From a virus: a stretch of DNA of 64,000 nucleotides. Positions within the stretch are counted from its first letter, which is position 1. Each line of letters begins with the position of its first letter. Location of the stretch: positions 1-64,000 of the IMG/VR virus record IMGVR_UViG_3300027749_000063; one strand, 5' to 3'. The notes below the pieces were generated by a model that saw only the letters and a program-made list of their open reading frames with translations, was not told the DNA's origin and did not search any database. This document shows, one piece after another, positions 1,989 through 22,005 of the stretch. Position numbers and translations under genes: made by a program.

Positions 1989-2303
1989 TTAATCTTCTTT
2001 CAATATTGTAATCTCTGATCCTTTGTGTATATAGATAGGTCCTATATAACCGTCTTTGATGATGTATGTTCTTTCTTCTTCTGGTAACTTATAAGAGATT
2101 ACGTAGTTCCACTCAGAGAATTTAAAGACAAAGCAATCTAAGACTTTAGGAGAAGGATGTTTGCCTTCGCCTATCAGATCCTCTACAAATAATGTATCAG
2201 ATAAAGTAAGAGGCATCATACCCTCTAGACTTTTAATAGGGAATAGTTGGGCTTTCAGGTTACTGAAGCCACATACGATTAAGATTAAGAACAGTTTTTT
2301 CAT
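1989..2303 (-). CDS. secreted/periplasmic hypothetical protein
   Basis: Signal peptide MKKLFLILIVCGFSNLKA followed by Gln. Confidence 0.7.
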   Translation of the reverse strand: MKKLFLILIVCGFSNLKAQLFPIKSLEGMMPLTLSDTLFVEDLIGEGKHPSPKVLDCFVFKFSEWNYVISYKLPEEERTYIIKDGYIGPIYIHKGSEITILKED

Positions 2304-5867: not shown

Positions 5868-6191
5868 CTATTGGGCATCTCTTTCTGTTCCATAGTCTAT
5901 GTATCTACCATCAGGGTAAATCTCATAGTAATGCTCTACCTCACCCTTAGAGATAAGATAGATTTGGTCACAAGTCTTAGTACGTACAGTAAGTAACAAC
6001 TTACTATCAAGGTTAATCACACAATTCTTGATGTGATTAACACTCGCCAGTATGTTCTTACATACAGTACTATCGTCAGCAGTGATAGCACCAAAGGATT
6101 TAACTACGTTAATCTTTGGCTTAGTTGTCCTGCTTACTTGACCAGAAAGGGAAGCACACAACAGGAAGGATAGGAAGAAGAAGTATTTCAT
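5868..6191 (-). CDS. secreted hypothetical protein
   Basis: Signal peptide MKYFFFLSFLLCASLSG followed by Gln. Confidence 0.65.
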   Translation of the reverse strand: MKYFFFLSFLLCASLSGQVSRTTKPKINVVKSFGAITADDSTVCKNILASVNHIKNCVINLDSKLLLTVRTKTCDQIYLISKGEVEHYYEIYPDGRYIDYGTERDAQ

Positions 6192-7381: not shown

Positions 7382-7451
7382 AAGTTTATAAATACAAATA
7401 TATAAAGAAATTACTTTAGTTTATATTAGTTTATATTAATTTATACTTCTC

Positions 7452-7481
7452 TTGACTTAATTTCTAGATTCTCTACATTTG
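7452..7481 (+). promoter_or_regulatory. Bacteroidota sigma-A-type promoter
   Basis: TTG-N19-TACATTTG. Confidence 0.75.
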
Positions 7482-7486
7482 TAAAC

Positions 7487-7610
7487 GAGGAAGATCAGTG
7501 TTTGTGGAGTTACGATTTCTTTGTGACTAATTTCTTAGCCATTTTTTGGAGGGTAATTAGGTAGGGATCAGATCTTTCTCCTTCATTACCCTGCCTAAGC
7601 CCTCTTTTTT
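7487..7610 (+). ncRNA. candidate sRNA or terminated leader
   Basis: ORF-less stretch between the promoter and a GAGGG...CCCTC-T-run hairpin. Confidence 0.4.
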
Positions 7611-7635
7611 ATTTTATGATATCTTAAAATACTTT

Positions 7636-8013
7636 ATGATACGTGATAACTTCTTTCTAACCCCTGGCTACTCTCAAGATTTAATAGAAGCTATTATTAA
7701 AGGCTTCTCAGAGAAGACTTATGTTTGTCCTCATGATTGGCAACAGCTTTATCAATTTAAAGAAAGGTTAGGAGTAGTCATTAGGCGAGAAAATGAGAAG
7801 TGGTTTATGCTTCTTAGAGGAGGAGATAACTATGGAGGAGAATTTGAAACTCAAGTTATCGAAAGTAAAGCGATTCCGTGTTCTAAGCCTAGATTTGAGT
7901 TCCCCTACCAGAGACAAGGATTCTTAAGATACGAAGGACAAGTACAAACAGGCCACTATCTAGAGAACGGCTATATCCTAACAGAAGAAAATCAATACAT
8001 TGTTTTTGAATAA
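7636..8013 (+). CDS. hypothetical (tail-associated) protein
   Basis: 125 aa, directly before the tail fibre; C-terminal YILTEENQYIVFE. Confidence 0.6.
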   Translation: MIRDNFFLTPGYSQDLIEAIIKGFSEKTYVCPHDWQQLYQFKERLGVVIRRENEKWFMLLRGGDNYGGEFETQVIESKAIPCSKPRFEFPYQRQGFLRYEGQVQTGHYLENGYILTEENQYIVFE

Positions 8014-13048: not shown

Positions 13049-13089
13049 TTAGTATTACAAAGTATTACAAAGTATTAAGTAATTTATTG

Positions 13090-13118
13090 AGACCCTCAGA
13101 GAAATCTGGGGGTTTTTT
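13090..13118 (+). terminator. intrinsic terminator
   Basis: AGACCCTCAGA-GAAA-TCTGGGGGTTT followed by T-run. Confidence 0.75.
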
Positions 13119-13217: not shown

Positions 13218-13340
13218 TTGAACATTTTCTCAGATATCACTGTATTGGTGAGTTTAACTGTTTTTCTCACTGTCCTACTTTCTAAGTGGGTCATAGAAGA
13301 CATTATTAAATTCTTAAAGAATAAAAAAGGTAACATATGA
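13218..13340 (+). CDS. 40-aa single-TM microprotein (TTG start; not in the ORF track)
   Basis: NIFSDITVLVSLTVFLTVLLSKWVIEDIIKFLKNKKGNI; ATGA overlap with the holin-like gene. Confidence 0.45.
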   Translation: MNIFSDITVLVSLTVFLTVLLSKWVIEDIIKFLKNKKGNI

Positions 13341-13585
13341 AACTATTAAACTTTATTGGCGGACTCTTCAAAGATGAGAAGGGTGTTGTCTCCATGAAAC
13401 GATTGTGCGGATTAGCATGCACAGTTACACTATGCGCTACATTGTACGCTAACTCTTTTACAGAGTCTCACTTTGCTCCTTCTGTTCCTTTGGTGGATGC
13501 AGTTGCTTTGTTGGCTTTTGGTTGTCTTTCTTTGACAAGCGCAGAGAAAATTATGAAAAAACCTGGAGCTAGTTCTGAGGATTAA
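13337..13585 (+). CDS. holin-like 2-TM protein
   Basis: 82 aa, SMKRL then two hydrophobic segments; directly before the lysin. Confidence 0.6.
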   Translation: MKLLNFIGGLFKDEKGVVSMKRLCGLACTVTLCATLYANSFTESHFAPSVPLVDAVALLAFGCLSLTSAEKIMKKPGASSED

Positions 13586-13627: not shown

Positions 13628-14185
13628 ATGAGTTTTACTAGAGAACAAATCGAAGCAGCTGTTAAAGCTAAAGGGCACAAATACTTCGAGAACGGAGAAT
13701 TTAATATCAATGTAATTGGTATTCGTAATAGTGCTACAGGACAAAAAGTTACCAATGCATTTGATGATTGGATGACTTTGAGCTATAAAGAAGGCGGAGA
13801 ATGGAAGTTCCATATCTGGCCTTGTACCACAGATAACGGTGGTGGAACTGCTCGTGTTAAACCAGGACAATATCCAGGATCACATGGTGTAGGTCTTCAC
13901 CAAGGTAAATACAAGTGTCTTAAGCAGAAAGCTCCTCTTACTGTATTCCGTGACTATACTAAAGACGGAGTATACCAAGAAGATAAAACTGAGACTGGAG
14001 TATTTGGTATCAACATTCACAAAGCAGGAGTTGATAGTCAGCAAGTTGGCGACTGGTCACATGGTTGCCAGGTATTTAAAAAGATTGCTGATTTTGATAA
14101 ATTTCTTGCAATCTGCGAGAAAGGTGCTAAATTACAGGGAGATTCTTTTACCTACACTTTAATTAAATCAGAAGACATTAAATAA
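13628..14185 (+). CDS. endolysin candidate, L,D-transpeptidase (YkuD)-like His/Cys enzyme
   Basis: GINIH...WSHGCQV (HxnSxGC) motif; position after the holin-like gene. Confidence 0.65.
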   Translation: MSFTREQIEAAVKAKGHKYFENGEFNINVIGIRNSATGQKVTNAFDDWMTLSYKEGGEWKFHIWPCTTDNGGGTARVKPGQYPGSHGVGLHQGKYKCLKQKAPLTVFRDYTKDGVYQEDKTETGVFGINIHKAGVDSQQVGDWSHGCQVFKKIADFDKFLAICEKGAKLQGDSFTYTLIKSEDIK

Positions 14186-14659
14186 ATGAAAGGACTTTTT
14201 GTAAGTCTTTTTCTAATTCTTTCTATTCCCTGCTTTTCTCAGATTAAAGTGATGAAGGCAGGGGATGGTTGGGATTTAAAGGTAGACTCAGCCTTAGCAT
14301 TAATTGCTCAAACAGATGTCAATGTATACATTAGATTAATAGATGTCTGCGACATAGTAGACTTTTGGATTAGTCCCTATTCTTCTAATAACATCTCTCA
14401 AGACGGAAACACTATTTACATAGCCGTAGGAGATGCAAAGATGAACTCAATAGCCAACTTAGCTTGCGTTCTAGTACATGAGAGTCTTCACTTAAACTAT
14501 TTGTTACATCCAGTAACTCAGAGTCTAGAAGAAGAAGAAGAACTTAAGTGCTACATATACGAGTTAAGTTTTATAAACAAACTACCAACCCCAGAGCCTT
14601 GGTTACAGGCAAACGCTGTAGAACAAATACACAAATTAAGTAAAATAAAAACAAAATGA
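14186..14659 (+). CDS. secreted zincin-like metallopeptidase
   Basis: Signal peptide ending ...PCFS-Q; LVHESLH (HExxH) plus downstream EEEL..Y..E. Confidence 0.7.
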   Translation: MKGLFVSLFLILSIPCFSQIKVMKAGDGWDLKVDSALALIAQTDVNVYIRLIDVCDIVDFWISPYSSNNISQDGNTIYIAVGDAKMNSIANLACVLVHESLHLNYLLHPVTQSLEEEEELKCYIYELSFINKLPTPEPWLQANAVEQIHKLSKIKTK

Positions 14660-16557
14660 ACAAATTAATTAAAATCTTCATCGGAGTGCTCACATTGTTG
14701 GTTGGCAATGCATCAGCACAATCTTCTGCTACCTCTCCAGGTACAGGTCACTGGGTAGTAATTGACTCAGGCTATCAAGTAGCTACTAACACTGTTGGTA
14801 AAACAGTTGCTCCTCTACATTTCTATAATACTTCTACTTCAGAGAAGATCACAGGTATGCAATTCCGTGTGTTCTACGATAAAACTGCTTTTACTGCAGT
14901 TGTTCCCTCTCTTAAGATTTCTACTACAGATCAATACCTTCAGTACGTAGATAGTAACACACAAGGATTCTTAACAGTTACCTTGGCTTATACAGGTACT
15001 AATTCTACTTACAACTATTCTAATGGAGCTACATTTGATTTGACTTTTACTCACGCTGCTGAGTCTACTTGGAATACTTTAGATTCTATCAAGACCTTAA
15101 AAGTTGCAGGTGTTAAGTCGTTCTCTAACAGAGCTGCTACTAACTGGGGTAATGATACTACTTTGGTAGTTTACTCATATGGTGGACGCTTCAACCAAAA
15201 GGTATTGAGATTTGCTACTAAGTTTAAAAACGTTACAGGATCTAACGCTAAGAATCTTACAGTTAGCTTAGAGAAAAGAGCTAAGGGTTCTTCTACTTGG
15301 ACTGAAATTGCTGCACAGAAAACTAACTCTAATGGGGTTACTGTATTCCGTAAGTTCTTAGATACTACTTATTGGGATGTACGTATTGTAGTTAAAGGCG
15401 ATACAATGACTCCAGGTAACGTATTCTCTACCGCTGATGCACAGAAGATCAATCAATCTATCTTAGGTCAATACACTCCTGCAGGATTTGATTACTACAC
15501 AATGGATGTAAACGGTACTACTGGTGATATTTCTATTGCTGATGTATACTCTGTATACGGACGTTTGGCAGGTAGATTCTCTGCTTGGCCTAATTCTAAG
15601 AAAGATGTAATGTTCTTTACAGTTGCTGAATATAATTCAATCAACGGATCTGCTTCTAACTTAACTGCTACTTACTCTACTGTAAATAACTTTACTTATT
15701 CTGTAGATGGAAGAGATTCTATTACTTACTATGTAGCTGTTAAAGGAGATGCAAACTCTACAGGATTTAAGATGGCTCGTTTGACTCCTATCAAAATTAC
15801 TAATCAAGCTAATGCTAAGAAATACATTATTGATGAAACTGTAACTTATGATTTCCCAGCAGAAACTATTGAGGTAAACATGCCTAAAGTATCTGTAAAT
15901 GAAGGAAACCTAGTTAACGTTCCTGTTAAAGTTTTGACTAACGGAAAGAACTTAGGTGCACTACAGTTAGATCTTAGGTATGACACAGCTTACTTAGAAT
16001 TTAAAGGTATTGAGAACACTGAAAAGATGATGAAGTGGACTACTTACATGAACCCTTCTAATGGTATTGTTTCTTGGGGAGGTGCGGACTTAACTAACGA
16101 AAACTTACTTAATGACGGAGAACAAGCATTTACAGTTCAGTTCATTGCTAAGAAGCCCCAAGATAGTTGGGCAACTGCAGCTTTATGGACAGGTGCTAAA
16201 TACGTAGGAGACAAGGACTCTAAGGATATGAACATCATTCCTGCTATGGGTATTGTAGAAGTACGTAGAGTTAACAAAGGAACTGTTTCGCTTAATGACC
16301 TTAACTCTATTATAGTATTCCCTAATCCTACAGAAGGAGATATTCAGATTCAATTTAAAATTAAAGAAGACTCTAACGTAGACATGGCTATCTCTGATGA
16401 GGTAGGAAGACGTATACAGACCATTCTAAAACAACGTATGCCTGCAGGTAAGTACAAGTATAGTGCAAACCTAGATCGTCTCTCTGATGGCGTTTATATT
16501 CTTTCTGTAACTACTGAGACAGAAGTATTACATTCTAAAATAATCGTACAAAAATGA
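14656..16557 (+). CDS. secreted cohesin-Ig-dockerin-cohesin protein with T9SS C-terminal sorting domain
   Basis: Signal ...NASA-Q; ITGMQFRVFYDKT and VNVPVKV...LGALQLDLRYDTAYLEF cohesin-like; DVNGTTGDISIADV dockerin-like; VFPNP...LSDGVYILSV...KIIVQK CTD. Confidence 0.75.
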   Translation: MNKLIKIFIGVLTLLVGNASAQSSATSPGTGHWVVIDSGYQVATNTVGKTVAPLHFYNTSTSEKITGMQFRVFYDKTAFTAVVPSLKISTTDQYLQYVDSNTQGFLTVTLAYTGTNSTYNYSNGATFDLTFTHAAESTWNTLDSIKTLKVAGVKSFSNRAATNWGNDTTLVVYSYGGRFNQKVLRFATKFKNVTGSNAKNLTVSLEKRAKGSSTWTEIAAQKTNSNGVTVFRKFLDTTYWDVRIVVKGDTMTPGNVFSTADAQKINQSILGQYTPAGFDYYTMDVNGTTGDISIADVYSVYGRLAGRFSAWPNSKKDVMFFTVAEYNSINGSASNLTATYSTVNNFTYSVDGRDSITYYVAVKGDANSTGFKMARLTPIKITNQANAKKYIIDETVTYDFPAETIEVNMPKVSVNEGNLVNVPVKVLTNGKNLGALQLDLRYDTAYLEFKGIENTEKMMKWTTYMNPSNGIVSWGGADLTNENLLNDGEQAFTVQFIAKKPQDSWATAALWTGAKYVGDKDSKDMNIIPAMGIVEVRRVNKGTVSLNDLNSIIVFPNPTEGDIQIQFKIKEDSNVDMAISDEVGRRIQTILKQRMPAGKYKYSANLDRLSDGVYILSVTTETEVLHSKIIVQK

Positions 16558-16904
16558 ACATAAAAAAAGCACTTGGTTTTACCCAAGCAGAACCAGTAGC
16601 AGTAGATTCTAAAAACAGGTTCTACTACATGCTACAACAAATGCAAGCCAATCGTTGGAGAATTACCGCTATCGTATTAGGTTTGTTTACTTTAATTATT
16701 CTCGGTATCAATGCAGCAGTATTTTTAGGAGCTTCTATTGGAGAAGACTGGAAAGAAATGCTACTTATTCTCTTAGGTGCTTTTGTAGGTAATTTAAACA
16801 AAGTAGTTGACTACTGGTTTAACTCTGAAGACAGAGACAAGATGTTAATACAGAAGGTCGATGAGGAAGACGGAGAATCACTATCAAACACAACTAATCC
16901 ATAA
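16554..16904 (+). CDS. 2-TM inner-membrane protein
   Basis: ITAIVLGLFTLIILGINAAVFLG and MLLILLGAFVG; VVDYWF motif. Confidence 0.7.
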   Translation: MNIKKALGFTQAEPVAVDSKNRFYYMLQQMQANRWRITAIVLGLFTLIILGINAAVFLGASIGEDWKEMLLILLGAFVGNLNKVVDYWFNSEDRDKMLIQKVDEEDGESLSNTTNP

Positions 16905-16908
16905 TATC

Positions 16909-17229
16909 ATGTCAGAAGAAAAAGAAGAAGGCGGTATGTCCGCTATCAAAAAAACAATCATTGGAGCAATCACTACTGCTGTAACAGCAGGAGGTGCTTG
17001 GTTTGCTACTCACTTAGGTGGTGGAGAAGATGAAAAGCCAGAAACTCCAACTGCTGTAGCAGCCCCTGCACCTGTGATTAACATCACTACGAACAACGAA
17101 CAAAAGCAACAAGCAAATACTGGTGGTGGTAACACTACTATTATCAGAGAGAAGACAATTGAAAAAGCTGCTTCTCCTGCTCCTGCTCCAGCAACTAAAC
17201 CAAAGCCAGATGAAGAAGATCCTTGGTAG
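16909..17229 (+). CDS. single-TM protein with Pro/Ala-rich disordered tail
   Basis: Likely start is MSEEKEEGG at 16909 (track ORF begins 16861); TM TIIGAITTAVTAGGAWFA. Confidence 0.65.
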   Translation: MSEEKEEGGMSAIKKTIIGAITTAVTAGGAWFATHLGGGEDEKPETPTAVAAPAPVINITTNNEQKQQANTGGGNTTIIREKTIEKAASPAPAPATKPKPDEEDPW

Positions 17230-17899
17230 TCTGTTATTGACTGTTGTATTGTTTGGTTGTGGTAGTATGAAAACAACCACAGATGATGAGCCTGTAGTAT
17301 CTAAGGACATCTCAAGTGTATCTGGTTATACAGATTCTATTAAAAGAACAGTTCAAGTAGTTAGTGTAGACATGACAAAAGTCTTAAGTTTGTATCCTGC
17401 TTTACAGGAAAAGAACGTAGGCTTAGGTTTTGCAGAATCCGTATTAGACTATTTAGATGAAACAAATCGTTTTGTATTTACTGAGGAGAAGAGTGAGATC
17501 AAGGAGAGGATGGTGACTCAGTTCAAAGCTTCAAAGAAAGGTGTATTTGATGAACCCATTGATGGAAAAGGTAAGATTAAACCTGCTCAATATTTTGTGT
17601 ATGTTACTGTGGCTGATTTTGCTGTTGATGAAGACGAGCAAGCTGAAGGTCTTAAGTCAAAGGTTGCTGTCACTACCTTTATTCGCTTACAAGTTCGTTT
17701 TGTTGACGCAAAGACAGGTCAGATATACATTGGATCTGGAGAAGGCGAATCACAAAAGATAGGCGAATCTTTCTTAAAGTCTCTTGACGATATGAAGTTT
17801 TCTCAAAGTACTGTCGGTAAAGCTACCAGAAAGTCTCTAGAAACTGCTTGTACTAATGTGATTCAAAATCTCATTAAGGCAGGTGTATTTAAAAACTAA
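17210..17899 (+). CDS. CsgG/HfaB-like outer-membrane lipoprotein
   Basis: Lipoprotein signal MKKILGSLLLTVVLFG-C (start 17210, not 17123); LDETNRFVFTE and IRLQVRFVDAKTGQI resemble the CsgG family. Confidence 0.7.
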   Translation: MKKILGSLLLTVVLFGCGSMKTTTDDEPVVSKDISSVSGYTDSIKRTVQVVSVDMTKVLSLYPALQEKNVGLGFAESVLDYLDETNRFVFTEEKSEIKERMVTQFKASKKGVFDEPIDGKGKIKPAQYFVYVTVADFAVDEDEQAEGLKSKVAVTTFIRLQVRFVDAKTGQIYIGSGEGESQKIGESFLKSLDDMKFSQSTVGKATRKSLETACTNVIQNLIKAGVFKN

Positions 17900-17960
17900 A
17901 ATATTATTAATCTTTTGCATACTAGCTCTGTCCCTAAAAGGTCAGAGCTTTATGTATTAA
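17883..17960 (+). pseudogene. orphaned 5' fragment (signal peptide) of the beta-barrel gene
   Basis: GTG-start 25-codon ORF YLKTKILLIFCILALSLKG-QSFMY-stop; mirrors QQFVY of 18584..20068. Confidence 0.55.
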
Positions 17961-17966
17961 AAATCT

Positions 17967-18608
17967 ATGGCAATTGTATACTCACATACTAGACTTGATA
18001 CTCAAGAATTGTTTTATATTGGTATAGGTAAAACAGAAAAACGAGCATATTCAAAACATGCTAGAAATAAGTATTGGAATCATATTGTAAATAAAACCGA
18101 ATATCAGGTAAAAATTTTGTATACAGATTTAACTTGGAAAGAAGCTTGTAAGAAAGAAATAGAATTAATCAATCAATATAAAAGAAAGATAGAAGGAGGA
18201 ATACTAGTAAACTTAACTTTAGGAGGTGACGGAAATACTTCTCCTTGTACAGAGGAAACTAAAAGAAGAATATCTGCATCTTGGAAGGGTAGAACTAGTG
18301 GTAGAAAAGGTAAAAAGTATGAAGATTGGTATTCAGAGAAAGAAATAAAAACTAAAAAAGAAGAATTAAGAGGTAGGATGGCTGGAACTAATAATCCTAT
18401 GTATGGAAAAGAAAGATCAGAACAAGTAAAAGATAAAATAAGAGAAAAATTAAAAGGAAAACCTGTATCTACAGAACAAGCTATTAGAAATAGAACAGTA
18501 TGTTTGGGTAGAAAGTATATAAGTAAAGAGGGTATTAAAAAGAAAGTTATACCTGAAGAAGTAGAAAAATATTTAAAAGAGGGATGGAAACTTGGACAAA
18601 AACACTAA
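17967..18608 (+). mobile_element. free-standing GIY-YIG-family homing endonuclease with NUMOD3-like motifs
   Basis: IVYSH...FYIGIG...R, E..LI, LVNLTLGGDG; EETKRRIS, NNPMYGKERSEQVKDKI. Confidence 0.8.
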
Positions 18609-20068
18609 GAGTTATTTTTATTTTAATTTTTTTAGTCTGTAGTCCCCTTGCAGCCCAACAATTTGTATACCAGTACACAGATCCGTGTACACAAGAGTTA
18701 AAATTTATTAACGCAAATATGTCTAGTCCTATAGTAATTGCTTACTATGGACAAGTCCAAACTTTCTCTTACACAGAATTAACAGACGGAACATTTGATA
18801 ATTGGATAAATAGTGTATATTTGAAGTATAAAAATACATCACCCTGTCAAGGAGTTGGAGTAACAACTACAACAACAACGACTACAAATGCAACCTTAAA
18901 CATTGTAAGTAATGTTATGAACTTAGGGGCTATATCAAATGTAGGAAGTGTTAACGTAGATGTAGGCTCTAGTACTTCTTCAGGAACTAACGTAGGAACC
19001 AACAATAAAACCAATAACAATGACAATCGAACTAACTCTCGGAATCGTACTAGCAGTAGCTCTAGTAATTCTAATTCTTCTGGCAGCTCGTCAGGAGAAA
19101 GTGGACAATCAAACGGTGGATCTAACTCCTCAGAAACCTCAGGAACCTCAAGTGGAAATTCCCCAGATCCCAATTCAGGAAGCAGCGGAGATGGTGCTTC
19201 AGGAAGCAGTGGCTCCAGCTCCAGTAGTGGAAGTAGTAGCGGAAGCAGTAGTGGAAGCTCCAGTGGTAGCAGTGGAAGCAGAAGTGGCTCAGGAAGTAGT
19301 GGTAAAACCGAAGAAAAAACGGAAGTACAAACCGAGAAACCCTCAGAACAAAAAGTAGAAGAAACTAAAACTGAGCAACAAAAGTCTCAGTCTAGTGGTA
19401 CTGCAAAAGCAGCCAATAAAGCTAAAGCCGAAGTTGCTAAGCCTGCGATCTTAGTAACTGGTGATTTAGTTGGTATTCAGACTAAGTCTGATGGAGCACA
19501 AGATGCAAGAGGTACTGCTTCCTTTACAAGAGTAAAAGGGGATGGTACTTCTTCTCTTGGGTTTTCAGCCGATTACATGCTTAATGCTAAGATCGGTAAT
19601 ATCTCATGCGTACGCTCGTGGATAGGGGCAAACAAAAAAGGCAACAAACACATTAGTGTAGTATCAGATGGAATGAGTCTGATGCCTAAAGCCTTCTCTA
19701 ACACAGCTCTGTTTGTTAGAGTAAATTCAGTCAAGAACTTTACAGCACTCTATGGAGCTGCTGGAACTTATGGTAAACTCTATGGAGAACAGATGATCTC
19801 TACTATTGTTATAGGAGGTTTTATGTATAAGGGAAAACTTACTAAGCATATAGACGCTACAGTTATTATGGCTGGTATCTATTCTCCTTACTCTAAATAT
19901 TATACAGAGTCTTTATTTAAAGCTAAACCTATTGTAATTCCTTTTGTAAACCTTACCTGGAAGATGACTAAGACATTTGGTATAGGAGTTACAGGAGGAG
20001 GAACCTATGTAGCTGGTCAAGACATTCTTAACTTTCAACTATTAATGGGAGCAAAGTTATTAATATGA
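18584..20068 (+). CDS. outer-membrane protein: signal peptide, N-domain, Ser/Gly-rich linker, C-terminal beta-barrel
   Basis: Signal ...SPLAA-Q; long SSG-rich tract; amphipathic beta-strands ending FQLLMGAKLLI. Confidence 0.65.
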   Translation: METWTKTLRVIFILIFLVCSPLAAQQFVYQYTDPCTQELKFINANMSSPIVIAYYGQVQTFSYTELTDGTFDNWINSVYLKYKNTSPCQGVGVTTTTTTTTNATLNIVSNVMNLGAISNVGSVNVDVGSSTSSGTNVGTNNKTNNNDNRTNSRNRTSSSSSNSNSSGSSSGESGQSNGGSNSSETSGTSSGNSPDPNSGSSGDGASGSSGSSSSSGSSSGSSSGSSSGSSGSRSGSGSSGKTEEKTEVQTEKPSEQKVEETKTEQQKSQSSGTAKAANKAKAEVAKPAILVTGDLVGIQTKSDGAQDARGTASFTRVKGDGTSSLGFSADYMLNAKIGNISCVRSWIGANKKGNKHISVVSDGMSLMPKAFSNTALFVRVNSVKNFTALYGAAGTYGKLYGEQMISTIVIGGFMYKGKLTKHIDATVIMAGIYSPYSKYYTESLFKAKPIVIPFVNLTWKMTKTFGIGVTGGGTYVAGQDILNFQLLMGAKLLI

Positions 20069-21267
20069 GATGGGTTGTTATTCTATTCTTCTTTGTGAAC
20101 TCACTGAGTGCACAATTCACCTATTCTGGATACTTGTATAGTGCAAATGGTTCAGGTGCCTCTAACGTCCCTGTAAAGCTTTATAAGAGTACAGCAGGTG
20201 CTACTACTAAGTCAGGTACTTTTGCTAAGATAACATCAGGTATTCCTTCAGATAGAGGAAGAGGAACCTCAGTACTTTTTTCTACTGCTAATACAGATGA
20301 AACATCTGTTGCTGTTACATTTCCTTCTGGATTTAGTCCTTCTTACGCAGGCACTACCTATTCATCAGGTCACGTAAATGCTAACTCATGGTTTACTTTT
20401 GGAACAGGTTCTAGTTCTGGATATAATGGAAATGCTACCAATCCTAACCAACCAACTATTCATATTGGTTCGGTAGATAATAGCTCTACAGATAATAATG
20501 TTTCTTATATTTCAACTGAAAGTTATACAGATGCAACTTACGGAGATGTGTTTAGAGTAAGATATGAAGGTAACTGTAAATATTCAGGAACTGGAGTGAA
20601 CTACACCTGGGATTTGTACTTTATTAAAAGCCAAGCTTCAAAACAAATAGTAGTTTGGAGAACATTCACCGCAGATGGTTCTAACCAAGAAATAATGGGT
20701 ATATCTACAGGTAGTGCTTGGTTAGCAAGTACACTAGTTACTTCAGGTTCTTTTTCTGGTACTAGTTGGGAAATAAATACATCCTCAAGTACTACAACAT
20801 CATCTACCTCATTAGATGCTACCTCAAATACAAACTCATCAGGATACTATTCTTTTTCAAGAACTACAGTAACCGGAGATCAATTTACAATTCAAGTAGA
20901 TGCTCCAACCAGAATACAGGCTTATACTACAACAGACATTCAAGCAGTATCCGACCTCATTCTTAATAAAACAGCTAAGACTGGTTTGACGTTTCAAATG
21001 TTTGATGTCAATGATGATTCTAAAATAACTGTGGCAGATAAATACTACGTAGCAGCAAGAAAGGCAGGAAGGTTTTCTAAATGGAGAATAGCTCCTGATG
21101 TGAGGATCTTTACAACTGCACAATACAATTCAATTGTAGCAGCAACGACAAATGTAAGAACAACTTACCCAGGAGTTACTAATCATACAACTTCTACTTT
21201 AACTAGTGGAGGAACTTTAAATCTATATCTAATAGCTCCTGGATACTCTGGAGCAGTAACTTATTAA
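20065..21267 (+). CDS. secreted dockerin-like protein with inserted passenger domain
   Basis: Signal ...SLSA-Q; FDVNDDSKITVAD; C-terminal part paralogous to the centre of 14656..16557. Confidence 0.7.
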   Translation: MRWVVILFFFVNSLSAQFTYSGYLYSANGSGASNVPVKLYKSTAGATTKSGTFAKITSGIPSDRGRGTSVLFSTANTDETSVAVTFPSGFSPSYAGTTYSSGHVNANSWFTFGTGSSSGYNGNATNPNQPTIHIGSVDNSSTDNNVSYISTESYTDATYGDVFRVRYEGNCKYSGTGVNYTWDLYFIKSQASKQIVVWRTFTADGSNQEIMGISTGSAWLASTLVTSGSFSGTSWEINTSSSTTTSSTSLDATSNTNSSGYYSFSRTTVTGDQFTIQVDAPTRIQAYTTTDIQAVSDLILNKTAKTGLTFQMFDVNDDSKITVADKYYVAARKAGRFSKWRIAPDVRIFTTAQYNSIVAATTNVRTTYPGVTNHTTSTLTSGGTLNLYLIAPGYSGAVTY

Positions 21268-21278
21268 CTATTAAAACT

Positions 21279-21725
21279 ATGAAAAAACTATTTATACTTT
21301 CCGCTTTAGTCACTATGATGACTTCTTTGAGTGCTCAATGCTACAAAATTGACACTGTAACTTCAATTGCTACTGTAACAGAGATAGGAGGAAGACCTAT
21401 AATCTTTGGAGCACAAACAACTCTAGAAGAGATTGCTTCTTCAAAGTACCAATTATGTAATGAGGGCAGTCCTATTTCAGGAACAATCAAATCCATTGCA
21501 ATGCCTGAACAACTTGTAAATATTGTAGGTTTACAGTTTCTGAAAAGAGAATATATTGTAAGTACAGAAATTAACGTAAATGGAATTCTTCTTCAAGGAG
21601 AAGCTAGTAAAGTAGTTTACGTTAATGCTATGTTTATTTCTGTAGAAGGTATTCCTCATAACAGAAAAGCTTATTCTAAGGCTTTAGAGAAGTCGTTTAA
21701 GAATGGGTTTGAAAGTTTAAAATAG
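21279..21725 (+). CDS. secreted protein, possibly a divergent CsgG-like paralog
   Basis: Signal ...SLSA-Q; IIFGAQTTLEE, GEASKVV and AYSKALEKS align by eye with 17210..17899. Confidence 0.55.
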   Translation: MKKLFILSALVTMMTSLSAQCYKIDTVTSIATVTEIGGRPIIFGAQTTLEEIASSKYQLCNEGSPISGTIKSIAMPEQLVNIVGLQFLKREYIVSTEINVNGILLQGEASKVVYVNAMFISVEGIPHNRKAYSKALEKSFKNGFESLK

Positions 21726-21729
21726 GATA

Positions 21730-22005
21730 GGTTCCTTCTCTCTTCGAGAAGTAGTCTATTTTGACTTTCTATTCTAACTTATATTACAGCAGTTTTTAAC
21801 CAAATAGCCTCTCAGAAGCTAAGTCTCTATTCTGTCCACTTATTGCCTACGGTCTATTAATTGTAGGTTAGAGCACTGTAAACTTTATTAGAACATTTTG
21901 ACACTATCGGAGAAACCTCTTTTCACCTCTGAGGGCTACTCATACAATCCAACTTCTAGCAGATTACTTTTTAATCCTCGTCTGCGAACACAAAGATGTG
22001 ATGTC
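21730..22005 (-). ncRNA. candidate ~275-nt structured RNA
   Basis: ORF-less; TAGCCCTCAGAGG/CTTCTGAGAGGCTA long-range stem plus hairpins; TACCTTCG promoter-like site at 22010-22017. Confidence 0.45.

Follow-up and report, generated by a model that had tools for sequence, protein, structure and literature searches.

Positions 14,186 to 21,725 of the window, the 64,000-nucleotide stretch analysed here (positions 1 to 64,000 of IMGVR_UViG_3300027749_000063, a 99-kb IMG/VR record with crAss-type terminase, portal and major head PHROGs), contain nine open reading frames (ORFs) on the + strand, eight of which encode proteins with export or membrane signals. We conclude that these genes form a phage-encoded host-envelope module built from known domain types, with precedents that cover its parts. 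The module comprises a scaffold protein (g2) that carries a cohesin domain and a type IX secretion system (T9SS) sorting domain, a secreted protein (g8) with an exchangeable head and a dockerin-like tail, a lipoprotein with a predicted CsgG-type fold (g5), a predicted outer-membrane beta-barrel protein (g7) and several small membrane or secreted proteins. Tentatively, we read it as a device for the display of lectins on the envelope of the infected cell around the time of lysis. The genes, together with the two lysis-type genes that precede them, are as follows.

13337..13585, + strand: holin-like small membrane protein, 82 residues, two hydrophobic segments (by eye), charged C-terminus
13628..14185, + strand: g0, endolysin-like, SHGC motif of the YkuD (L,D-transpeptidase) type, no signal peptide
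14186..14659, + strand: g1, 157 residues, secreted HExxH protein, putative zincin metallopeptidase
14656..16557, + strand: g2, 633 residues, predicted T9SS cargo scaffold with cohesin
16554..16904, + strand: g3, 116 residues, small inner-membrane protein
16909..17229, + strand: g4, 106 residues, inner-membrane anchored; the ORF opens at 16861 and homologues begin at Met17
17210..17899, + strand: g5, 229 residues, predicted outer-membrane lipoprotein with a CsgG/LpoB/FlgT-type fold
17883..17960, + strand: stranded original 5' end of g7, with GTG start and signal peptide, ending ...QSFMY before a stop
17967..18608, + strand: g6, GIY-YIG/NUMOD3 homing endonuclease, a mobile insert outside the module proper
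18584..20068, + strand: g7, 494 residues, predicted outer-membrane protein with a C-terminal beta-barrel at residues 288-492
20065..21267, + strand: g8, 400 residues, secreted, exchangeable head and dockerin-like C-terminal part (residues ~244-400)
21279..21725, + strand: g9, 148 residues, small secreted protein, probable diverged paralogue of g5

The module is tightly packed: g1/g2, g2/g3 and g7/g8 overlap by 4 nt and g4/g5 by 20 nt, the other gaps measure 0-11 nt, and the stop codon of g0 abuts the start of g1. An earlier note, made from the letters of this DNA alone, had described eight abutting or overlapping genes for exported or membrane proteins; the coordinates and overlaps agree with this description, but the row is interrupted between g5 and g7 by g6. 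As read with a hydrophobicity and lipobox script and by inspection, the products of g1, g2, g7, g8 and g9 start with a signal peptide followed by Gln, and g5, with the lipobox LFGC, is the sole clear lipoprotein encoded in the 99-kb genome. The Gln residue is conserved among the homologues of g1, g2, g7 and g8 and partly among those of g9, a pattern known as the Q-rule of Bacteroidetes (PMC5837995, PMC10653852) and already noted for Porphyromonas prophage proteins (PMC10367356). Three more small ORFs outside the module, at 1989-2303 (- strand), 5868-6191 (- strand) and genome position 80677-81036 (+ strand), encode signal-peptide-like N-termini followed by Gln, and the phage may thus export further proteins, including some from the oppositely oriented left end of the window.

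Conservation of the module and its mobile insert

A scan of viral contigs with g5 yielded 128 relatives, from which 80 loci were kept for comparison; the cultured Flavobacterium myophage vB_FspM_immuto, which keeps the gene order in gp013-gp019 at 27-55% identity, brings the set to 81. Genes g2, g4, g5, g7 and g8 are present in every one of the 81 loci, in a fixed order that is the same in 80 of the 80 IMG/VR loci, whereas g9 is found in 70 and the accessory genes g3 and g1 in 64 and 60. The 80 loci span at least two unrelated phage backbones, one crAss-like, with a 669-residue terminase encoded ~2-2.6 kb downstream of the module, and the other represented by contigs of up to ~166 kb with DnaB and ribonucleotide reductase genes upstream. 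Queries with distant g5 sequences led to further lineages (L084-L092; g5 is 32-37% identical, and identities of 23-37% apply to the genes of more distant lineages as a whole) that keep the order scaffold, membrane protein, g5, g7 and g9-slot gene, and g5 homologues are also present on contigs of 250-390 kb. Conservation of gene order in other phages, which the earlier note had proposed to look for, is thus evident, and the module is not specific to Crassvirales; immuto and other backbones carry it as well.

Between backbones the module is a mosaic of identities. The g5 and g3 proteins are ~80% identical across unrelated phages, g5 being the most conserved gene of the module, and in the loci L064 and L079 the g8 protein is 91% identical to that of the window and the g9 protein only 34-39%. 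A 'distant' search of the phage collection at the DNA level left the module and the packaging genes unmatched; relatives were found at the protein level only. Among 185,579 prokaryote species genomes (one genome for each species) scanned with a g7 alignment, there was a single match, to a phage contig in a metagenome-assembled genome (MAG). This contig (L083, RFPL01000028.1; 16.5 kb) was deposited in a Sphingomonadaceae MAG and encodes g0-g8 at 50-97% identity; mis-binning of phage sequence is the most likely cause, and the match offers no basis for a host assignment. Indexed DNA runs of freshwater or lakes, from more than 20 studies, contain related sequence, and both runs that we examined cover the stretch. 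We infer a Bacteroidota host, since g2 has the sorting domain, the exported proteins follow the Q-rule and a Flavobacterium phage carries a homologous module; our best explanation is that the module is an accessory envelope unit exchanged horizontally among freshwater Bacteroidota phages.

The g6 gene is not part of this conserved set. Its product matches phrog_314 (E 3e-20) and NUMOD3 (E 5e-10), and it is regarded as a mobile insert because such an endonuclease gene is present in only 20 of the 81 loci, at varying positions. In the window, g6 has split g7 directly behind its signal peptide (17883-18674). The stranded start of g7 (17883-17960) still encodes, from a GTG codon, a signal peptide ending in LSLKGQSFMY before a stop codon, and a replacement start with a new signal peptide (METWTKTL...AAQQFVYQ) overlaps the 3' end of g6. 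In the endonuclease-free relatives L003 and L008, the stranded frame reads straight into g7, and the endonuclease-free allele (joint 17958->18674) was seen in two independent lake DNA runs, X2 and X4. More endonuclease-like ORFs are found in relatives at L003:4313-4999, L014:4236-4922, L005:5513-6115, L008:3634-4335 and L012:3694-4416; the relatives' ORFs lie at the g0/g1 and g3/g4 junctions and upstream of g0, and one of 228 residues has a GIY-YIG-like N-terminus (by eye). The region of the lysis genes and the module looks like a hot spot of homing endonuclease insertion.

Other genes interrupt the module as well. The g3/g4 junction is an insertion site: three loci have there a pair of DUF2589 genes (E 1e-30 and 1e-13; no signal peptides) at L005:6349-7436, L016:6240-7327 and L034:6064-7151, and L064 has genes for a 387-residue Ala/Glu-rich protein and for a 94-residue protein with a membrane helix and a coiled coil, the latter just before g4. 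Between g8 and g9, genes with tail-fibre-like N-termini (by eye) occur at L052:7331-8426 and L057:3238-4950, one of them weakly similar to the 1429-residue tail-fibre-like protein of the window (E 0.012). A distant version of the module in L086, L088, L089 and L090 (for instance, L088:3733-11206) comprises a T9SS scaffold of 940-990 residues, an additional barrel-like protein of ~285 residues (by eye; signal peptide and ...FGFDL or ...FGFNF end, no family matched), a g4-slot protein with a membrane helix and a coiled coil, a g7 protein without the long Ser-rich linker, and a final gene for a protein that consists of a membrane helix and a coiled coil and ends in ...KLWDWR.

The scaffold g2 and the exchangeable heads of g8

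The g2 protein starts with the signal peptide MNKLIKIFIGVLTLLVGNASA followed by Gln (inspection and hydrophobicity script) and continues with an N-terminal domain, an Ig/prealbumin-like region, a dockerin-like segment (residues ~258-311), a cohesin (405-526) and a sorting domain (554-631). The cohesin call is well above the Pfam cut-off (PF00963, 50.7 bits against 24.1, E 2.9e-13, best stretch 405-526), and the region also matches solved cohesins in a phmmer search (6kgc, E 0.0046). The same is true of the sorting domain, detected both as Por_Secre_tail (PF18962, 41.9 bits against a cut-off of 27, E 1.3e-10) and as TIGR04183 (40.5 bits against 23, E 2.1e-10, residues 554-632), with a P556-N557-P558 motif that is invariant in 21 g2 homologues. 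By domain criteria g2 is therefore a T9SS type A cargo, as had been noted earlier, secretion itself being a prediction. The proposed order cohesin-dockerin-cohesin-sorting domain is retained only in part: one cohesin and the sorting domain stand, and the N-terminal cohesin and the dockerin do not reach the same level. For the former, Pfam reported two stretches matching Cohesin, of which the best was located, and a GMQFRVFYD motif can be recognised by eye in the N-terminal domain; this domain gave no PDB cohesin match as a single sequence or as a profile, and an hhalign comparison of the two halves of g2 was negative.

In g8, a head is inserted in an Ig/prealbumin-like domain and followed by a constant tail. 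The C-terminal part is homologous to residues 212-390 of g2, and the ~150 residues that the two proteins have in common include one complete DVNxDxxIxxxD loop with its helix (alignment A4). The helix that precedes this loop (T-x-D-A/I-Q...L-G/N) comes without a calcium loop, that is, the duplication typical of dockerins is not seen. Matches to Dockerin_1 were obtained for 10 of 24 g8 family members, all below threshold (best E 2.7e-4), and the profile of the segment found a dockerin chain in the PDB at E 0.96 only. 'Dockerin-like' is thus a fair name for the shared tail, and membership in the dockerin family, at most weakly suggested by these profiles, is not established. Within the 99-kb genome the motif is confined to g2 and g8; decoration of the virion, with the cohesin catching a dockerin on the particle, was considered and dropped for this reason.

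The heads themselves vary. On the same tail, relatives of g8 carry heads that match Lectin_C (E 1.5e-17; with EPN and WND motifs, by eye), PA14 (E 6e-6) or GEVED (E 2.7e-14), and gp013 of immuto is annotated as a C-type lectin. Relatives that are 97-99% identical to the window in g5, g7 and g9 differ from it in the g8 head, which is similar to no other protein of the genome. Lake DNA contigs skip or replace 637-843 bp inside g8 (joints 20185->21029 and 20189->20827), which fits natural populations with alternative heads. Accordingly, the 'dockerin plus passenger' protein of the earlier note keeps its passenger, now identified as an exchangeable lectin-type head, with the dockerin remaining below threshold, and the idea of adhesion or binding is strengthened by the nature of the head. 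Jointly, the T9SS-targeted cohesin protein and the dockerin-like protein point to the cell surface.

The only other secreted protein upstream of the membrane proteins, g1, matched no Pfam or PHROG family. Its HExxH motif, singled out earlier, is invariant in 17 homologues, as are all of H98, E99, S100, H102, E118, E119 and E126.

Envelope-embedded proteins

The two inner-membrane proteins had been described as having two and one transmembrane segments. For g4 the single segment stands: a 14-residue acidic cytoplasmic N-terminus is followed by one Gly/Ala/Thr-rich membrane helix conserved in 23 homologues, then by a low-complexity periplasmic stretch rich in Pro, Ala, Asn and Gln, with an invariant C-terminal Trp that in nearly all homologues ends the motif ...E-D/S-P-W. 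For g3 the count depends on the reader, two hydrophobic segments being seen by eye and one flagged by a crude script; the protein is 74-98% conserved and has only weak SLATT and phrog_38564 matches.

The g5 lipoprotein scores below the cut-off of Pfam CsgG (PF03783, 14.7 bits against 20.8), and a PDB sequence search with g5 alone returned only noise. However, the family as a whole is related to CsgG: 20 of 42 g5 relatives match the Pfam family (best E 3.7e-23), some of them also LpoB, and the family profile finds Escherichia coli CsgG in the PDB (E 4.4e-4). An AlphaFold2 model of g5 (pLDDT 82) retrieved CsgG structures as top Foldseek matches (4uv2, 6l7c and 4uv3, E 5.5e-7 to 1.7e-6), followed by FlgT, GNA1162, PelC and LptE. 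The protein is ~50 residues shorter than CsgG. In CsgG, two amphipathic transmembrane beta-hairpins, TM1 and TM2, build the 36-strand pore. In a profile alignment of g5 to E. coli CsgG, with the hairpins at what we take to be their positions, a shorter, charged stretch (...AVDEDEQAEGLKSKVAV...) takes the place of TM1, and the alignment ends ahead of TM2. Judged by sequence and a monomer model, g5 therefore has the CsgG fold but probably forms no CsgG-type pore, so that of the 'CsgG-like pore' proposed earlier the lipoprotein and its predicted fold remain and the pore does not. No curli family, such as those of the partners csgE, csgF, csgA and csgB, was found among the module proteins in Pfam or NCBIfam.

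The g9 protein had been called a CsgG-like paralogue. Direct hhalign comparison of the g9 and g5 families is negative (probability 1.8%), but the 171-residue protein in the g9 slot of L088 matches both, the g5 family with 98% probability (E 3e-13) and the g9 family with 81% (E 1.2e-5). Through this intermediate, g9 is probably a diverged, non-lipoprotein paralogue of g5. The g9 family itself has no PDB match, and in the Atlas it retrieved viral hypothetical clusters and nothing else, apart from weak leads (below 0.9) to Lipoprotein_16 and DUF4410.

Behind its replacement signal peptide, g7 has an N-terminal domain of ~65 residues with two invariant Cys residues and a poly-Thr tract (alignment A2), then a Ser/Gly/Asn-rich linker of variable length, a Glu/Lys-rich segment and a highly conserved C-terminal domain. 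No Pfam family matched the protein. The AlphaFold2 model places 12 strands at residues 288-492 (pLDDT 60-73) and a helix at 255-283 (pLDDT ~30-36), at most a candidate for the helix that threads or plugs such barrels and sets the side faced by the N-terminal domain. Nearly all Foldseek matches are membrane beta-barrels, mostly of bacterial outer membranes, including the TamA barrel and, at E 1e-4 to 3e-2, KdgM (TMt 0.64), NanC, PcoB, FapF and autotransporter barrels; KdgM/OmpL, Tsx and Phage_OMP were leads in the Atlas. Distant g7 homologues without the long linker end in ...GTNF or ...RVFF, the aromatic end that is the usual signature of outer-membrane proteins. The Ser-linker beta-barrel recognised from the letters remains a predicted barrel of ~12 strands, modelled at moderate confidence. 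A word-based homologue search with the barrel returned close relatives and fragments only, and no bacterial ancestor. Taken together, the cohesin, T9SS and CsgG-fold calls hold in profile and structure searches, and those of the dockerin and of an N-terminal cohesin stay weak or without confirmation.

Lysis genes and the possible roles of the module

Holin and endolysin genes adjoin the module, and they belong to three kinds without homology to one another. In the window, g0 matches phrog_3000 (E 8e-28), the endolysin family phrog_33083 (E 2.8e-4) and Pfam YkuD (E 0.034), and the 82-residue holin-like protein has no PHROG match. In the crAss-like loci, a holin-like gene and the YkuD-type g0 lie 4-672 bp upstream of the module, and in the ~166-kb lineage a phrog_199 holin or a holin-like homologue and a phrog_181/GH19-type endolysin are encoded 260-700 bp downstream of g9. 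In L057, L064 and L078, a homologue of the holin-like protein of the window is encoded 32-46 bp downstream of g9, beside a GH19-type endolysin; behind the module, a homologue of g0 is found 345 bp away in L052 and L072, and ~1.1 kb away in L067 and L070, where a GH19-type gene intervenes; and L086 has a phrog_3427 holin gene (E 1e-30) directly upstream of the scaffold gene. The exception is immuto, in which the annotated endolysin is ~6 kb away. In the window, a strong terminator-like stem (13089-13116) precedes the holin-like gene and a weaker one (21735-21751) comes just after g9; holin-like gene, g0 and module seem to be a single transcription unit. This weak stem is all that was seen in ~280 bp without an ORF (21730-22005) between g9 and the next genes. 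A sigma-70 promoter scan, which is not informative for Bacteroidota, gave matches at the level of shuffled sequence. Contigs of two metatranscriptome libraries cover parts of g1, g2, g3, g5 and g7; these may be DNA and are not proof of transcription. No PADLOC defence-system family was detected among the module proteins.

The reading that we favour, with somewhat less than even confidence, is lysis-timed display of a lectin on the envelope of the infected cell by way of the host T9SS, whose purpose would be to mask receptors of the dying cell and of debris from it, or to capture neighbouring hosts. Late in infection, the phage would send six to eight proteins into the host envelope, five of them through Sec with signal peptides whose removal exposes Gln, and g5 as a lipoprotein. 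The cohesin-bearing scaffold g2 would be exported by the host T9SS, and g8, with its dockerin-like tail and its exchangeable glycan-binding head, would dock on g2, possibly already in the periplasm, and leave together with it. The T9SS moves folded cargo, so that piggy-back export is conceivable. On the outer face of the infected cell and on debris, g2 and g8 would make up a multivalent lectin assembly, and g5, its paralogue g9, the stalked barrel g7 and the periplasm-spanning g4 could be the envelope-embedded part that anchors or times the display. The likeliest benefit would be binding of host-type surface glycans near lysis, which would either hide the receptors of the dying cell and of its fragments, in the manner of T5 Llp and lambda Lom, or hold the cell beside fresh hosts.

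Several observations weigh against display. The presence of a T9SS in the host is an assumption, and the arrival of g8 at the surface is a conjecture, as the protein has no T9SS domain of its own. Only one cohesin of g2 is confirmed; in the dockerin-like part only one complete calcium-loop segment is visible, and g8 of the window matches Dockerin_1 (PF00404) at 13.9 bits (E 0.064), below the cut-off of 22.9. The head of the window's g8 matches no family. Nor is there clear coupling of head and tail-fibre type: in L003 and L008 both the C-terminus of the tail fibre and the head of g8 depart from those of the window, and L043 has the window's head with a different tail fibre. Outside the barrel, the model of g7 has low confidence and does not fix the orientation of the stalk, which could point outside or into the periplasm. 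Finally, the link to lysis genes, the overlap of g4 with the gene of the sole lipoprotein and the coiled coils in distant g4 slots fit a lysis device at least as well.

Because the module adjoins holin and endolysin genes in several lineages, exit from the cell, one of the roles suggested earlier, has become the main rival. The module would then be an extended lysis cassette in which g4 and g5, perhaps helped by g7 and g9, do the work of a two-component spanin or time lysis in Bacteroidota hosts, g3 is holin- or antiholin-like, and the cohesin and lectin proteins are passengers of a late operon. The three unrelated holin/endolysin sets and the contact of g0 with g1 speak for it, and g4 and g5 have the 'overlapped' spanin architecture (PMC6139136): g4 has an N-terminal membrane helix in the N-in, C-out topology expected of an i-spanin, and g5 takes the o-spanin position, its gene overlapping g4 by 20 nt, with the endolysin-like g0 3 kb upstream in the same gene string. 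The shapes of the proteins speak against it, since the periplasmic part of g4 is Pro/Ala/Asn/Gln-rich and lacks the coiled coil of i-spanins, and mature g5, with ~210 residues, is globular and folded (pLDDT 82) where o-spanins are short and unstructured. In the distant locus L088 the g4 slot (7449-7853) does encode a membrane helix with a coiled coil and the last module gene weakly matches the Rz-like spanin family phrog_739 (E 1.2e-3); L064 has its membrane helix plus coiled-coil gene just before g4, and no canonical spanin follows the endolysin of L060. CsgG homologues of marine myophages have also been proposed to act in lysis, from synteny (PMC9004378). Nevertheless, this explanation gives no role to the core T9SS scaffold, the swappable lectin heads and the long-stalked barrel protein, and the endolysin of immuto is distant. 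Lysis cassettes are also adjoined by morons and cargo genes, bor and stx among them, that have no role in lysis. We regard the reading as a lysis cassette as rather unlikely. Display and a spanin-like action are not mutually exclusive, and a combined version, which we find similarly doubtful, would be an envelope machine in which the tether, the pair of CsgG-fold proteins and the barrel couple lysis to T9SS display of a lectin-headed cohesin/dockerin agglutinin, the cassette being traded between phages and retargeted by swapping heads. If true, this would provide both the missing outer-membrane lysis step of these phages and a receptor-masking or host-capture device.

Still less probable is a takeover or exclusion function in the periplasm or outer membrane with nothing displayed, in which the proteins, for example, engage or jam the T9SS and gliding apparatus or bind envelope glycoconjugates, with loss of receptors from the surface and hence superinfection exclusion, or arrest of gliding, as the result. 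By default, g8, g9 and g1, with Sec signals and no T9SS domain, would stay in the periplasm, and g2, with its cohesin and dockerin-like module, could self-associate into bulky cargo. The T9SS is a plausible target, as phage resistance in Flavobacterium is reported to map to gliding and T9SS genes (PMC9804748), and the ~80% identity of g5 and g3 across backbones suggests a conserved host partner. On the other hand, evidence for a host target is absent, the exchange of lectin heads speaks for variable external glycans over a conserved machine, and the adjacency of lysis genes is left unexplained. Nutrient capture, in which a cellulosome-like scaffold exported by the T9SS would help the infected cell to bind or take up polysaccharide, is very improbable: complexes that degrade polysaccharides typically have cohesin, dockerin-like and carbohydrate-binding domains, and earlier phage T9SS cargoes include glycoside hydrolases (PMC7468147), but no catalytic glycoside hydrolase or lyase domain was found in the module proteins or head variants, in most lineages the module stands with lysis genes and not with early or metabolic genes, and its late position leaves little time for a benefit. 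That the block, co-oriented between a tail-fibre-like gene and the packaging genes, encodes virion parts or is a misassembled host fragment, the latter raised in the earlier note, can practically be dismissed, as Sec, lipoprotein and T9SS signals are foreign to virion proteins, which are assembled in the cytoplasm, the window has an even GC content, and the same block with phage flanks recurs in 80 viral contigs and at least three backbones, has related sequence in the lake and freshwater runs and is absent from the bacterial genomes scanned.

Precedents for the display that we favour concern parts of the module. Among the closest is the Cryophage T9SS cargo (Bellas et al. 2020, PMC7468147) from cryoconite holes, likewise of Bacteroidota phages, with type A sorting domains and variable genes that include a PA14 protein, for which the authors also suggested membrane-associated roles or effects on superinfection. 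There, single enzymes or the PA14 protein each have their own sorting domain; here, the one cargo is a cohesin scaffold. The variable lectin or PA14 head resides on a second protein, which ends in a dockerin-like tail and lacks a sorting domain, and the two are encoded in a fixed module of several genes that also supplies outer- and inner-membrane parts and lies beside lysis genes. A CsgG-family lipoprotein without curli subunits is known from another lytic aquatic phage, the Methylophilales phage Melnitz, for which lysis timing or 'sibling capture' has been proposed from synteny (PMC9004378), and pelagimyophages are reported to carry CsgG/CsgF as well (PMC7029224, cited in PMC9004378). Those are recognisable CsgG and CsgF pore proteins of Proteobacteria phages, whereas g5, a far more distant protein that seems to be without the hairpins, is encoded in a different module, of Bacteroidota phages, and without a CsgF partner.

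Two-component spanins (lambda Rz/Rz1; Kongari et al. 2018, PMC6139136) resemble the g4/g5 pair in that the gene of a type II membrane protein overlaps a lipoprotein gene near holin and endolysin genes and in that the pair could span the periplasm. They differ in that g4 has no coiled coil, g5 is large and globular instead of a short Pro-rich peptide, and there are four further conserved exported proteins around the pair. Cohesin-dockerin assemblies share with the module a bona fide cohesin scaffold and partners with an EF-hand-like DVNxDxxIxxxD segment followed by a helix, but in the module this segment has one complete calcium loop and stays below threshold, the payloads are lectin-type and not enzymes, export would be by the T9SS, and the genes are viral. 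T5 Llp, phi80/T1 Cor, and lambda Lom and Bor are also phage lipoproteins or barrels in the host envelope, some encoded beside tail-fibre or lysis genes, and block superinfection or the loss of progeny on debris; unlike the module of at least six genes with a predicted glycan-binding output, they are single small proteins acting on defined protein receptors. Outer-membrane barrels are widespread in large phages, and Lom masks LamB (preprint 10.64898/2026.10.24.761521). In a search that left most subscription journals outside, we found no published account of this combination of proteins or of a phage cohesin/dockerin-like pair with exchangeable lectin heads.

A lytic phage with a genome of ~100 kb devotes ~7% of it to proteins that leave the cytoplasm, in a module that at least four phage backbones have kept, its gene order included. 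Two questions become testable with it: how Bacteroidota phages, in which canonical spanins are often not found, pass the outer membrane, and what purpose phage-encoded T9SS cargoes serve. Experiments are feasible because a cultured system carries the module, vB_FspM_immuto (gp013-gp019) with Flavobacterium sp. LMO8. With exchangeable C-type lectin, PA14 and GEVED heads on a tail that stays constant, the phages may have a second layer of host-glycan specificity outside the virion; this would matter for phage ecology, superinfection dynamics and the engineering of phage-delivered surface display in Bacteroidota.

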